Positions 20,542-24,977 of a DNA stretch of 64,000 bases are shown piece by piece; the first letter of the stretch is position 1; every line of letters starts with the position of its first letter. The stretch covers positions 1 to 64,000 of the forward strand of contig CAWHCF010000025.1 of the NCBI GenBank assembly GCA_963827655.1, read 5' to 3'. The DNA comes from an uncultured Acidobacteriota bacterium. Its GTDB lineage: Bacteria; Acidobacteriota; UBA6911. Both the position numbers and the translations under genes were made by a program. The notes under the pieces are model-generated. The model ran no database searches, had not been told where the DNA came from, and saw nothing but the letters and a program-made list of their open reading frames with translations.

Positions 20542-20901
20542 ATGCGAATGGCATTCCTCCTGCTGATTGTGCAGTCGCTCTGGATGGTGGCGCCGGTGTG
20601 TGGAAGTGTTACCGACGTCGACGCCCGCGCCTGCTGCGAGCGCCACAGTCCGTGTGACGAAGCGGACGGGAACGATCCCCAGCCTGCTGATCCGTGGAAG
20701 TGCTGCGAGAAGGGGGATCATGCCTACCCGAGCACGCTCTTGCGATTTTTGACGGCTCCGGAGCTCGGGGTGGCATCGGCAGTCGTGCTTGAGGAGCCGG
20801 CGCAGCCCATCGCGCCCGCATCGTGCGTGCTCGACCCGGTTTTCCCTTTGAAGATGCCCATCATCCCACTTTATCTCCTCGACTCGAATTACCGGATCTG
20901 A
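20542..20901 (+). CDS. Cys/His-rich leader-type protein upstream of a metal/redox operon
   Basis: N-terminal hydrophobic helix, C..CC..C..CC and Pro-rich tail PIIPLYLLDSNYRI. No SD sequence; TTGACC and a -10-like AAGGAT just upstream suggest a leaderless transcript. Confidence 0.6.
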   Translation: MRMAFLLLIVQSLWMVAPVCGSVTDVDARACCERHSPCDEADGNDPQPADPWKCCEKGDHAYPSTLLRFLTAPELGVASAVVLEEPAQPIAPASCVLDPVFPLKMPIIPLYLLDSNYRI

Positions 20902-20966: not shown

Positions 20967-21908
20967 ATGCGCAGGAATGTTCTCCTTCTGCTCGCATCCT
21001 TCTGGCCGCTGACCCTGGCAGCCGTTGGCCACGCGCAGGGACCGAGCCCGGAAAATGGCGCGACACTCTTTCCCGGCGGCGCCCTCGTGTCGCACAGCTC
21101 GAACTTCACGATGGGAACCGCGATAGCGCCGCCCGGCGGGACCAGTCCACTCGAGGGCGCCCGGCCGACGTCTGCATACGAGGGGACGGCGACATTTGCC
21201 TGGGGCTTCCGGCGTGACTTTCAGCTGACCGCACTCGCGCCCTATGCTGTGCACCGCTTCGAGCTATCCCAGCCGACCAGCGCGCTCGAGGTTGGCGGCT
21301 CCGGCTGGGGGGATGCGCAGCTGCTTCTGAAATACCGTTTCCTGAGGCGCGATTCGCCGCGAGGGACGACACAGGCTTCGATCGAGGTCGGCCCCAAGCT
21401 CCCGACGGGCCGCACGGACCTTAGGGACTCCGCCGGTGCACTTCTCCCGGCCGGTTTGCAGCCGGGATCGGGATCAACCGATCTCGTCATAAACGGAAGC
21501 GGCACCTATACCGGTGTCTTCCATATCAAGCGCCTGGTTGCCGACGGAACCGTCAGCTGGCTGCGCCGCTCTGAAGGGACCCAGGGCACGCGCCTGGGAG
21601 ACGCGTTTCTCGCGCGCTTCTGGCTGTCCTACCGTCCCTACCAGTCGAAGTCGGTCGGGAGGGAGTGGTTCATCGGCCCGTCGCTCGCGTGGCGCCGCCT
21701 GGGGCGCGACCGCCAGAACGACGCCTCGATCGAGCGCAGCGGCGGCGACCTGCTGCTCGCGGGCATTACCAGTTACGTGAGCCCACATGCCGGCATCGTG
21801 TTCTGGCTTGCCCTCGACTTCCCCGTCGGGGAGTGGACGCAGTCGGCCGTGAGCTTCGATCGCCGTGTCAATTTCGGGATAACCAAGCAGTTCTCACTGC
21901 ACCACTGA
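20967..21908 (+). CDS. Outer-membrane beta-barrel 'transporter' family protein (MetA-pathway/phenol-degradation-like)
   Basis: GAGGTG RBS and ATG at 20967; signal peptide; GWGDAQLLLKYRF, GPKLPTG and LQPGSGSTD motifs; terminal beta-strand. Confidence 0.75.
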   Translation: MRRNVLLLLASFWPLTLAAVGHAQGPSPENGATLFPGGALVSHSSNFTMGTAIAPPGGTSPLEGARPTSAYEGTATFAWGFRRDFQLTALAPYAVHRFELSQPTSALEVGGSGWGDAQLLLKYRFLRRDSPRGTTQASIEVGPKLPTGRTDLRDSAGALLPAGLQPGSGSTDLVINGSGTYTGVFHIKRLVADGTVSWLRRSEGTQGTRLGDAFLARFWLSYRPYQSKSVGREWFIGPSLAWRRLGRDRQNDASIERSGGDLLLAGITSYVSPHAGIVFWLALDFPVGEWTQSAVSFDRRVNFGITKQFSLHH

Positions 21909-21925
21909 CTCAGGGAGGATTCACT

Positions 21926-22454
21926 ATGAGACGCGGAGAATTTGCTTCTTTCGCTCGTCCTTGTCCTCACAACAGCCGCGCGCCTGGACGCTGGGATCGA
22001 CCGCATCGATCTCCGGGTCGAGGGAATGACGTGAAACTTCTGAGCGTACGGGGTGCAACAGCACCTAACGCGCCAGGCTGGCGTCGCTAAAGTAGATGTG
22101 GAATTGATCGACGGCAAGGTAACCGTCTATCCCAAACCGGATGCCCGGCTCGATCCCGCGCGTCTCCTGAAGGAGACCTTCGACAGCGGCGTGTCGGTTG
22201 CCGAAATGACAATGACCGCCGGCGGCTGGGTCGACATGGGTCCCGGCGGCGGTCTGGTGTTCAAGATTTCCGGCGATCAGGTCTTCCCGGTAATCTCGAA
22301 CGCTCTCGCGCTCGAGCTTCAATCGCTTGCTTCCGCGCCTGCGAAGGTTACGTTGCGCGGCGTTCTATACCGGAAGCCCGCGGGAAGAGCGAGAGCGAAG
22401 CCCAAGGAAGTTTCCCTGCAGCTTGAAGTGCTCGAGATTGTGAAGAAGGAATGA
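21926..22454 (+). CDS. Exported heavy-metal-associated (HMA) domain protein with UxxU motif, putative double selenoprotein
   Basis: Frame reads LLLSLVLVLTTAARLDAGIDRIDLRVEGMT[TGA]NF[TGA]AYGVQQHLTRQAGVAKVDVELIDGKVTV, with TGA at 22032 and 22041. ATG 21926 (after GGAGG) is one base out of frame, so either an indel or a start at TTG 21942. Confidence 0.8.
22044..22087 (+). promoter_or_regulatory. Candidate bacterial SECIS hairpin(s)
   Basis: GCGT-ACG-GGGTGC-AACA-GCACCT-A-ACGC (22044-22071) and CGCC-AGGCT-GGCG (22071-22083), directly 3' of the two UGA codons. Confidence 0.45.
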
Positions 22455-23122
22455 TTCCGATGGACCCGCGACACGCCACTCTGATTTCGTTTGTCGCTTG
22501 CGCCCTCGGGCTTCTGCAATCATCCATGTCCGGGGCGGTTCCCATGCAGGCAGCTGAACTCGCGCGCATTCCTGATTTCGCTCTCCGGGACACGCGAGGA
22601 CAGGTTGTCTCCAGGAAACAGTTTCGCGACAGGGTGCTGCTGATCAATTTCTGGGCTACCTGGTGCGGTCCTTGCCGCAAGGAGATGCCGGGTTATCAGA
22701 CGCTTCAGAAGAAATACGGCAGCCGACGCTTTGCGGTGATCGGCATCGCGCTCGATTCGGATTCCAGGAACGTGGAGAAGTTTGCCAGAGAACTCGGCAT
22801 AACCTACACGTTGCTCCTGGATCCTGCGCTCATGATGACAACTTCCGGTCAGAATGAGTGGGGATTGATGGGAATCCCGACCACGCTCCTCGTGGACAGG
22901 GATGGCACCATTCGAGAGAGAATCGTCGGCTTTGAGCGAACGGAGGTCGTCGAAAAGGCGCTCAAGCAACTGCTGGAGGCCCCGCGTGCTTCTCGAGACT
23001 TGCCGGATCAGAAAGAAATGGCGGTGTTGCATCGTCGGGGCAAGTTCGCGAAATTTTCGTGGCCGCTGCCGCGTACCCGTAATTGCGAACGCTTGTACTT
23101 CAGCGCGGCTGGTTCGTGGTAA
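22451..23122 (+). CDS. TlpA/ResA-family thiol-disulfide reductase
   Basis: LLINFWATWCGPCRKEMP and GIPTTLLVDRDG; ATGA overlap with the HMA gene. The C-terminal tail may be an indel read-through. Confidence 0.92.
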   Translation: MIPMDPRHATLISFVACALGLLQSSMSGAVPMQAAELARIPDFALRDTRGQVVSRKQFRDRVLLINFWATWCGPCRKEMPGYQTLQKKYGSRRFAVIGIALDSDSRNVEKFARELGITYTLLLDPALMMTTSGQNEWGLMGIPTTLLVDRDGTIRERIVGFERTEVVEKALKQLLEAPRASRDLPDQKEMAVLHRRGKFAKFSWPLPRTRNCERLYFSAAGSW

Positions 23123-23162
23123 TATGGGCCCAAACGTCCAAGTTTTCAATTCGAGGTGTCAA

Positions 23163-24977
23163 ATGTCTCGTTCATTCCGAATTTCACAGGGGATTTTGTG
23201 GATGAGTCTCGCAGGCACATGGCTGGGCGAAGCCCAGACCGAGAATGGAAGACAAACTATGCGGCCGGTGATTCGAGGGAAACAGTACGCGGCCACCTCG
23301 ATGAGACCGGAGGCAACCCAGGCTGCCGAACGCATCCTGCGAGCCGGCGGCAATGCATTCGATGCCATAGTCGCGGGCCAGGCCGTTTTGTCACTAACCG
23401 ATGCCGCCGGCAACGGGATCGGCTCGGACGCGGTGCTCCTGGTCTACGACTCCAAGTCGAAAAAGGTGTTTTCTGTCAATGCGGAAGGGACGGCTCCTCG
23501 GCTGGCCACCATTGACTGGTACAAGAAAAACATGGGAGGCAAGCTTCCGGTCAACGACGGGCTGCTTTCCGCGACGGTACCCGGAGTCGTCGATGCCTGG
23601 TACACGCTTCTCGATCGATGGGGAACGATGAGCTTCGCCGAGGTTCTGCAGCCGGCGATAGACATGGCGGAAAACGGTTTCCCGCTGGGTGATCGCCTGG
23701 CAGGGGGTATAGCGAGTTCGAAGAAGCTGCGGAAGTATCCCACGAGCCTGAAGCTCTATTTCCCGAACGGAAAAGCGCCGGAGCCGGGCGATATCTTCCG
23801 CAACGCGGATCTGGCGCGCATGCTCAAGAAGCTGGTCGAGGCGGAGAAGGAAAAGACCGCGGCTGGCCGCCGCGAGGCGCTGCGCGCCGCGCGCGATCGC
23901 TTTTACAAGGGAGACATCGCGCGCGAAATGGCGCGTTTCTCAGAGGAGAACGGCGGGCTTTTTCGCTATGAGGATTTCGCCCAGTACACGGCTCTGGTTG
24001 AGACGCCGGTTTACGTGGACTATCGCGGTTTCAAGGTCTACAAGAATCCATCTGCCTCCCAGGGACCCGCCGAGCTGCTGGTCCTGAACTTGCTGGAAGG
24101 TTATGACCTCAAAGCCCTGAAGCATAACAGCGCCGAGTACATTCACGCGGGCGTCGAGGCCGTCAAGCTGGCCTTTGCCGATCGCGACAAGTACATGGGC
24201 GACATGAATTTCATACAGATCCCGTACGAGGGGCTTCTGTCCAAGGAGTACGCTGCGCGAGCGCCGGAAACTGATCGATCCCGAAAAGGCTTCGCTCGAG
24301 TTCCGGCCTGGTTCAGCGGAAAAGTACATGAAGGGAGTGGAGCCGGTCGATCGTCCGCTCGATGTGCAGTTATCAGGGAAAGGGGACCACGAGGGGGATA
24401 CCAGCTACATCGCGGTGGTCGATAAGGATCGCAATATGGTCACCTTTACCCCCAGCAACCATAGCGGCTTTGGTACGGGAGTCGTGATGGGGGATCTGGG
24501 ATTCGTTCTGAACTGCCGCGGCGACTATTACTCCATGGTCCCGGGACATGCCAACGCGCTCGAGCCTGGGAAGCGTCCGCGCAGCACTCTTCAAGGCACG
24601 CTGGTTACAAAGGACGATCAGCCCCTCATGGTTCTCGGAAGTCCGGGGGGCGATGACCAATGCATGAGGACGATGCAGACCTTTCTCAACATGGTGGAGT
24701 TCGGCATGAATATCCAGCAGGCCATCGAAGCTCCCCGCTGGTCGACTCAAAGCTTTCCCTCCTCCCCGTTTCCTCACACGATGTATCCGGGCCGATGTCC
24801 GTGGAGCGGAGAATCTCGGAGGCCATCCAACAGCAACTGACGAAGAGGGGCCACAAGGTCAAGGTCGAAGGTTCCTGGTCCCTGGGAAGTAATGCCGGCA
24901 TCGTGGTTGATTCGAAGAAAGGCGTGCTCGAAGCTGGAGCGGATCCCCGCGCCTCCGCCTATGCGCTGGCATGGTAG
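23163..24977 (+). CDS. ggt: Gamma-glutamyltransferase family protein (frameshifts near 24260 and 24795)
   Basis: GGNAFDA, TVPGVVDAW, RDRFYKGDIA, catalytic GDTSYIAVVD, PGKRPRSTL, GSPGGD and AGADPR. Confidence 0.9.

Follow-up and report, generated by a model that had tools for sequence, protein, structure and literature searches.

The window analysed here, 64,000 nucleotides (nt) of contig CAWHCF010000025.1 from an uncultured Acidobacteriota bacterium of the UBA6911 lineage, carries between positions 21,926 and 22,454 a gene for a heavy metal-associated (HMA) domain protein that is interrupted by two in-frame TGA codons and probably encodes an exported selenoprotein with selenocysteine (Sec, U) at both metal-ligand positions. 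The parts of this gene and of its cassette in the window lie on the forward strand. A Shine-Dalgarno sequence, GGAGGA (21914-21919), is separated by six bases from an ATG (21926-21928) that is likely the true start. The signal peptide core and cleavage region (21942-21992), judged by eye, consist of the hydrophobic leader LLLSLVLVLTTAARLDA, with cleavage before a G, and lie upstream of the TGA codons in the same frame; homologues share the signal peptide pattern M-N-x-K-K-LALLxLLG...AQA, cleaved before QIKH. The ferredoxin-like HMA domain assigned by Pfam, AlphaFold2 and Foldseek (21993-22190) contains, between strand 1 and helix 1, the loop GMT-U-NF-U-AYG, in which the first TGA (22032-22034) sits at Cys1 and the second (22041-22043) at Cys2 of the GMxCxxC motif. 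The letters are as quoted in a preliminary description of this DNA, and both codons share the frame of an open reading frame (ORF) annotated from 22053. The frame around them is RVEGMT-TGA-NF-TGA-AYGV and the fuller read-through GIDRIDLRVEGMT-TGA(22032-22034)-NF-TGA(22041-22043)-AYGVQQHL, translated as ...GIDRIDLRVEGMTUNFUAYGVQQHL... up to the gene's predicted true stop, a TGA at 22452-22454 that overlaps the ATG of the next gene as ATGA. Two hairpins follow the Sec codons: H1 (22050-22067; GGGGUGC-AACA-GCACCU in the window), a candidate module of a selenocysteine insertion sequence (SECIS), and H2 (22068-22086; core CGCCA-GGC-UGGCG in the window), a candidate SelB-binding SECIS stem-loop. The remainder of the gene (22191-22451) is predicted to form an OB-fold-like beta-barrel (beta1-3, helix, beta4-5) with a Lys-rich loop. 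The mature protein would comprise about 153 residues, the HMA domain with G-M-T-U-N-F-U preceding the OB-fold-like domain. A scan for promoters and terminators gave nothing above shuffle level, and RNA runs X15-X20 contain no more than small parts of the window.

The TGA pair is conserved throughout the relatives found and is hidden by public annotation. The preliminary description had proposed Sec at both metal-ligand positions of a hidden HMA protein, not two nonsense mutations, and had suggested looking for conserved TGA codons and for CxxC and CxxU forms among homologues. A search of the protein collection gave 157 matches; 116 of the 120 listed are proteins of 128-134 amino acids that begin directly 3' of the second TGA and carry the NCBI name 'heavy metal-associated domain-containing protein'. 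The other four listed homologues span the whole query and show Trp (W) at both sites, with C-termini that run on past the stop as 'KKEW...', which indicates that the gene caller used TGA as Trp. Public predictions of this W-x-x-W kind with run-on C-termini include P0006, P0007, P0008 and P0010, and some metagenome pipelines systematically mis-annotate the family by reading TGA as Trp. At the DNA level, a scan of one genome per species identified 126 relatives, nearly all titled Acidobacteriota or Terriglobia and from soils. TGA is present at both codons in each of the 80 loci kept (two further regular-expression matches lie elsewhere and are unrelated). It is likewise present in all three distant relatives within the window's own class, with NA between the codons in G038 and G039 and SL in G003, and in a metagenome contig with PL between them (L130). 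Contigs from four other soil or rhizosphere sequencing runs, which represent related strains and not the reads of this assembly, retain both codons and show no difference at 22032-22043. The residues R-V-E-G-M-T immediately 5' of the TGA codons are invariant while their codons vary, with the Thr at position 30 encoded by ACT in 35, ACC in 18, ACG in 18 and ACA in 9 loci, which indicates that the part 5' of the TGA codons is translated in this frame. From these sequences, we conclude that the pair is not damage and that its pattern is far beyond chance.

The family is unevenly distributed. It is rare in the window's class, where four of 137 species genomes, the window's included, and none of 50 in its own family carry it, and common among genomes labelled Terriglobia. 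Two shortened database entries, P0004 and P0005, group with the window protein, to which they are 57-61% identical. Horizontal transfer is possible.

Relatives with Cys at the same positions share the architecture of the TGA-containing form. A profile search over 1.84 billion representatives identified CxxC relatives of about 170 amino acids that share the signal peptide and both domains, HMA and C-terminal, and carry the loop G-M-x-C-P-F-C-A-Y-G. Both U positions fall on invariant Cys residues in all 12 CxxC two-domain homologues aligned (alignment A5). Scanning metagenomes with the Cys forms yielded 479 relatives (80 retained), and all 26 listed two-domain loci carry CPFC. These proteins make up an unnamed CxxC family of metagenomic origin (P0176, P0212, L098-L128 and others; G-M-x-C-P-F-C-A-Y-G-x-E-K-K-L-K) that differs from the Sec form in having Cys at both positions, in sequence (19-31% identity) and in carrying no stable RNA structure past the Cys codons. 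A mixed form is found in metagenome contig L139, where positions 2028-2039 read C-P-F-TGA in a sequence that otherwise belongs to the CxxC branch, with a 7-bp hairpin (loop CGGGC) beginning 17 nt past the TGA. This CxxU locus could be an intermediate or an independent Cys-to-Sec change. In a FastTree phylogeny (midpoint-rooted, supports not read, every fourth distinct Terriglobia row included), the UxxU and shortened forms lie on one side, the CxxC row P0167 is nested among them and the CxxU row lies among the CxxC forms; the order of events is not inferred from this tree. With TGA read as Sec, the metal loop of this HMA family occurs as CxxC, CxxU and UxxU. Two ordinary CxxC HMA proteins are encoded within 3 kb of one UxxU gene, at positions 882 and 4310 of L096 (G039 contig C416).

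The TGA pair is followed by an RNA structure that is specific to the Sec forms. Two adjacent hairpins are located in the 60-75 nt from the first TGA, H1 at +19 to +36 and H2 at +37 to +55, with apical loops beginning 21 nt past the first UGA (H1) and 32 nt past the second (H2). H2 is the most constrained of the two. In most relatives it reads GGACGCCA-GUC-UGGCGUUC with an invariant G as the first loop base, and it is paired in 99.3% of cells across 81 sequences and in 95.3% across 16 of 84 sequences hand-picked for diversity, where two compensatory pairs are seen. H1 slides in register between lineages but is retained as a hairpin of 6-7 bp. Synonymous sites are nearly frozen over the 17 codons past the TGA pair (F33 to Q49), with near-zero synonymous variation from R44 to Q49; examples are CGC and CAG (each 80/80), TCT (75/75), GGC and GTG (each 79/80). 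Normalised codon entropy is 0.258 in the 15 columns past the TGA codons versus 0.677 in 67 other conserved columns (Mann-Whitney p = 3.4e-6). Folds of 60 nt starting at the first Sec codon have a mean z of -2.76 in UxxU forms, with 90% below -2 (59 distinct sequences), versus -0.14 and 9% for folds starting at the first Cys codon of CxxC forms (46 distinct sequences). The tandem of H1 and H2 is also the minimum-energy fold in diverged lineages that encode different amino acids (G038, z -4.59; L130, z -2.89; G003, z -1.42).

The host genome encodes the machinery for Sec insertion that the preliminary description had proposed to look for. It contains tRNA-Sec (74.1 bits, anticodon TCA), selB (380 bits versus a cut-off of 242), selD (384 bits versus 125) and selA, the largest piece of which scores 398 bits. 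A formate dehydrogenase alpha subunit, FdhA (1381 bits; G000 contig C26, 166295-169291), contains exactly one in-frame TGA. A molybdopterin-enzyme-like match on contig C23 (324512-325081) likewise contains one TGA. Because selB is above its cut-off in 127 of 137 genomes of the class, a tally that takes in the unpublished genome G081, on which nothing rests, and the family is present in only four, co-occurrence of the two cannot discriminate. Four of five hand-picked homologue-bearing genomes contain selB.

The gene start and selA are both frameshifted in the present assembly. The ATG at 21926 is one frame off the HMA frame, which confirms an indel near 21930-21941, the region in which the preliminary description had suspected one. 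Compared with related strains, one extra base is present at 21937-21941, representing an assembly indel or a strain-specific frameshift. This base is absent at 21937 (runs X3 and X4) or 21941 (run X2) in all three related contigs that span the site, the contig of run X1 not covering it, and with one base fewer the ATG falls in frame with the HMA reading frame. A TTG at 21942 is an alternative in-frame start. At position 21909, directly after the stop of the upstream gene, runs X3 and X4 also have one base fewer. selA, located outside the window (G000 contig C23, 243631-244996), is split by two frameshifts into three frame pieces, whose matches follow one another along the SelA model; the split reflects either an indel error of the assembly or decay of the gene, which bears on the capacity of this organism to make any selenoprotein. 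Within the window, a gene at 22902-24840 that looks gamma-glutamyltranspeptidase-like from its sequence appears as two overlapping ORFs in different frames (22902-24425 and 24328-24840), a probable further indel break. The split selA, the frameshifted gene start and the overlapping ORF pairs in the window together point to an indel-prone assembly, and it is most likely such an indel error that puts ATG 21926 out of the HMA frame.

Structure prediction indicates an HMA fold followed by an OB-fold-like domain. With TGA read as Cys, the protein passes the Pfam HMA model PF00403 (30.3 bits versus a gathering threshold of 24.8; E 5.6e-07). An AlphaFold2 model built from a 60-row alignment (pLDDT 88.2, pTM 0.82) places the HMA fold at residues 18 to about 92, predicted to have the beta-alpha-beta-beta-alpha-beta topology of ferredoxin-like folds, and Foldseek matches this part to MerP (1osd; TMt 0.85, root mean square deviation (rmsd) 1.7) and CopZ (6ff2; TMt 0.91). 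The C-terminal part had been described in the preliminary account as an uncharacterised beta domain; it is now predicted to be an OB-fold-like barrel on the basis of weak matches. Modelled alone, its 87 residues form three strands, a helix and two strands (pLDDT 78.8), with Foldseek matches to the N-terminal OB domain of AspRS, to SSB and to an OBody at E 0.007-0.1 and TM of about 0.5-0.58. A profile search gave no PDB sequence match for this domain at E<=10, and no Pfam model matches it. It contains no conserved cluster of Cys, His or Met, and a second metal site is thus not indicated.

The family resembles several known HMA proteins and falls below the cut-off of each model. The closest in kind is NCBIfam NF041115 ('UxxU_metal_bind'), an HMA-type domain with Sec in place of both Cys residues of CxxC and predicted metal binding. 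NF041115 is a single-domain model of 74 positions with a cut-off of 95 bits, whereas the window protein reaches 37.8 bits, three relatives 36.2, 42.7 and 38.5 and the genome scan 24.3, and the present family has in addition a signal peptide, a second domain of OB-like type and a fixed gene cassette in which the barrel and the TlpA-like reductase are encoded. MerP (TIGR02052; PDB 1afi, 1osd), which binds Hg(II) in the periplasm and is encoded in mer operons, is likewise an exported HMA domain with a GMxCxxC-type loop and is the best single-domain structural match (32% identity and rmsd 1.7-2.5 A in Foldseek, 1osd and 1afi). The window protein differs from it in having two Sec for two Cys and the additional OB-like domain; it scores 31.2 bits and its relatives 36-39 bits against the TIGR02052 cut-off of 92.55, and the window cassette contains no merR, merT or merA. 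The Cu(I) metallochaperones of the CopZ/Atx1 type (NF047957, NF033795; PDB 6ff2, 2qif) have the same fold with the loop in the same place, and of all NCBIfam models theirs score highest for the HMA domain (39-49 bits), all below cut-off. CopZ is a cytosolic, single-domain protein, whereas the window protein is an exported two-domain protein. Of the four Sec forms and two Cys forms compared, none reaches the cut-off of an NCBIfam model.

The UxxU gene is part of a conserved cassette. Directly upstream (20967-21908), the window encodes an outer-membrane beta-barrel-like protein of 313 amino acids with a signal peptide, related to PF13557 (Phenol_MetA_deg). A homologue is located just upstream on the same strand in 79 of 80 Sec-form loci. 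The window protein itself has no Pfam match at E<=1 and remains below the PF13557 threshold; a homologue beside a CxxC form (L110, 6041-6886), matched to it by tblastn at E 1e-12, scores 43 bits against a threshold of 22, and in the clusters suggested by the protein atlas, 18-24% of members carry PF13557. Directly downstream (22451-23122) lies a gene for a thiol:disulfide oxidoreductase with the motif WCGPC. It matches Pfam Redoxin (90.5 bits) and AhpC-TSA (83.4 bits) and has as its best NCBIfam match TlpA (NF047696), at 96.9 bits against a cut-off of 230, so we describe it as TlpA/ResA-like and not as a demonstrated TlpA. Of the 80 loci, 78 by tblastn and 79 by clustering have a gene for a TlpA-like thioredoxin-fold lipoprotein on the downstream side. 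The distant relatives G038 and G039 have the same genes in another order (TlpA-like, UxxU gene, YHS-like small protein, barrel), and G003 has barrel, UxxU gene and an NHL-repeat protein. MerR-family regulators and cation-efflux proteins are each found near 8 of the 80 Sec-form loci.

CxxC forms share part of this neighbourhood. As for the Sec form, a homologous barrel gene adjoins them in 12 of 26 loci, many of which are on short contigs. They differ in having MerR-type regulators nearby and no detected TlpA-like neighbour (0/26). Among the six loci with long flanks, an NHL-repeat protein lies past the barrel in four, a neighbour shared with the Sec-form locus of G003, and four encode MerR-type regulators whose best NCBIfam match is MerR (141-147 bits versus a cut-off of 150.85; a second regulator in L110 reaches 105.6 bits). 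One of these four also encodes MerA (512 bits versus 454), and another encodes a heavy-metal P-type ATPase.

Taken as a whole, these observations are best explained by an intact-in-kind gene for an exported selenoprotein that combines a UxxU HMA domain with an OB-like domain, a reading to which we give a probability of roughly 0.85 and which supports the preliminary description. That this is a genuine UxxU selenoprotein family is highly probable. Several points weigh against this interpretation. selA is broken by two frameshifts and the gene's own start is out of frame in the present assembly; if these frameshifts are real and not assembly errors, this organism does not make a selenoprotein from the present copy. 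One of the five homologue-bearing genomes, which may be incomplete, showed no selB at E<=1e-60. The window's own 60 nt fold with a z of -1.46, and 17 of 200 shuffles fold as well; the minimum-energy structure is an extended H1 (22039-22077) without full H2. The p value of 2e-17 for the comparison of UxxU and CxxC folds at equal GC content (0.52) overstates independence because the UxxU set consists mostly of close relatives. The high conservation of the region leaves little covariation: one double-change pair is seen in the 81 sequences, as in 48 of 500 shuffles, and two (37-55, GC to CG; 44-48, AU to UA) in the hand-picked set of 16, as in 76 of 500 shuffles. No Rfam family and no curated bacterial SECIS model matches in 21900-22300. 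None of the Foldseek matches behind the OB-fold assignment reaches E<=0.001. As to context, no TlpA-like gene is found near the CxxC forms in 26 loci, many on short contigs, the window cassette contains no mer or cop genes and, as noted, MerR-type and cation-efflux genes are near only a tenth of the Sec-form loci.

We propose that both UGA codons, 9 nt apart, would be decoded as Sec by SelB and tRNA-Sec, with the tandem of H1 and H2 in the next 17 codons as the likely decoding signal. In the periplasm, the two selenolates of the reduced U-x-x-U pair could bind a soft metal ion between them, in the way that MerP and CopZ use two thiolates, the ion most likely being Hg(II) or Cu(I). The co-encoded PF13557-type barrel may be the outer-membrane partner, and the co-encoded TlpA-like reductase would keep the easily oxidised Sec pair reduced. 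The preliminary description had offered Hg, Cu or Ag binding and diselenide redox chemistry as alternatives, and here gene context gives leads rather than proof. We lean towards metal binding as the protein's job. Hg(II) in particular is a tentative assignment with somewhat less than even odds, favoured because the Cys forms sit in MerR and MerA contexts, while Cu(I) stays in play on account of the CopZ-like scores and the TlpA-like partner.

The same selenoprotein could instead be a periplasmic Cu(I) chaperone for cuproenzyme assembly that is prepared by the TlpA-like reductase. TlpA of Bradyrhizobium reportedly prepares ScoI and CoxB in this way. The translational coupling of the TlpA-like gene through the ATGA overlap, its presence in 78-79 of 80 loci, the CopZ models at the head of the NCBIfam matches, weak SCO1-SenC matches from the TlpA-like proteins and the YHS-like small protein in the G038 cassette (24.6 bits, below cut-off) all fit such a role. 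The cassette, however, contains no cuproenzyme, Sco or PCuAC gene, the CopZ scores share their place below cut-off with every other family score, and the CxxC relatives sit with regulators that best match MerR and in one case with MerA. We consider a copper chaperone unlikely on balance, if worth serious attention.

A redox job is less likely for an HMA fold. It would have U-x-x-U cycle between diselenide and diselenol, the protein serving for example to reduce substrates or scavenge oxidants in the periplasm with electrons from the TlpA-like protein. In favour of such a role, reviews and the GOS paper place UxxU motifs in thioredoxin-fold and Prx-like selenoproteins, and no neighbour of the Sec form is more constant than the thiol:disulfide oxidoreductase, which is not found beside the CxxC forms (0/26). 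The predicted fold is HMA and not thioredoxin, however, the HMA CxxC sites are metal sites in all solved structures among the listed Foldseek matches, and the CxxC relatives occur in metal-regulator contexts, so that a purely redox function appears improbable.

Far less probable is the proposal that the TGA codons are true stops, the locus encoding a short leader peptide and a separate 133-amino-acid protein from GTG 22053, or a decaying pseudogene. Homologues are publicly annotated at just this length, and the frameshifts at the gene start and in selA would suit decay. Against this, the signal peptide and the first HMA strand are conserved as protein with synonymous change in all 80 loci, both TGA codons align with the Cys pair of the CxxC homologues, a 133-residue product would be missing its leader as well as beta-strand 1 and the metal loop of the HMA domain, the RNA structure past the codons is specific to the TGA form, and related contigs lack the frameshift. 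A pseudogene, a sequencing error and TGA as Trp were each rejected. Reading of the UGA codons as Trp or Cys by genome-wide or local recoding without Sec, suggested by the gene callers that gave homologues TGA as Trp, is hardly credible given that TGA ends the present gene, the upstream gene (21906-21908) and the homologues, of which the 'KKEW...' tails are run-ons, and that the complete Sec machinery and the TGA-containing FdhA are present.

A bolder extension of the UxxU selenoprotein interpretation is a natural bis-selenolate metal trap in soil Acidobacteria, with one tandem-SECIS hairpin for each UGA, a dedicated TlpA-like reductase and periplasmic capture of soft metals together with the barrel. 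The single CxxU relative, with its one strong hairpin, is consistent with one hairpin per UGA. As a complete picture this is speculative and we regard it as unlikely; if true, the TlpA-like reductase would owe its existence solely to the need to keep the diselenide open, selenium and not sulfur would catch Hg(II) or another soft metal, and soil selenium supply would be linked to mercury handling.

HMA selenoproteins with UxxU are a kind already known from NF041115 and from reviews; a table of the GOS paper includes a Sec-containing 'Mercuric transport protein MerP' (2 sequences) and a UxxC cation ATPase. The preliminary description could not tell whether the family had been catalogued; a UxxU HMA family has been, and the present family lies below the cut-off of that model. 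The main text of the 2007 paper contains neither 'mercuric reductase' nor 'UxxU', and details of the NF041115 family may be in its other files. Full-text literature searches found no description of the present family; a listing in a supplementary table is possible. Other UxxU selenoproteins in the table of a 2026 review are a Prx-like thiol:disulfide oxidoreductase (UxxC/UxxU) and an FmdB-family putative regulator (UxxU), which similarly have two Sec separated by two residues and differ in their thioredoxin/Prx and zinc-ribbon-like folds and in proposed redox rather than metallochaperone roles. This review counts 119 selenoprotein families, most with a single Sec, and the deep-Sep paper reports three known and no new selenoprotein genes in one Acidobacteriota genome.

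What is new here is a probable UxxU HMA selenoprotein that is exported, consists of two domains, belongs to a conserved cassette and is widespread but mis-annotated. Selenoprotein L is another UxxU selenoprotein. Two-Sec proteins are rare in bacteria, and this family is common, with its 126 relatives among the species-representative genomes scanned. Because public annotation shortens it to entries that begin past the second UGA, the selenoproteome of a dominant soil phylum is undercounted. One fold with CxxC, CxxU and UxxU forms offers a clean natural comparison, the gene is a test case for SelB decoding of two UGA codons 9 nt apart, and the family is a candidate link between selenium and the handling of soft metals, mercury or copper, in soil.

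In the window, a small ORF at 20542-20901 with a leader and two CC motifs precedes the barrel gene, its membership in the cassette being uncertain. A 118-amino-acid Cys/His-rich exported protein opens the cassette at this position in 69 of 80 loci. Homology of the two is not supported (BLASTP E 8.3; tblastn 0/80) and neither has a Pfam match; the window ORF may be the positional counterpart. In metagenome contig L107 (3891-7301), the pair of a CxxC HMA and OB protein and a PF13557-like barrel is present in two tandem copies, preceded by a MerR-type regulator and a small CC-motif membrane protein and followed by an NHL-repeat protein.

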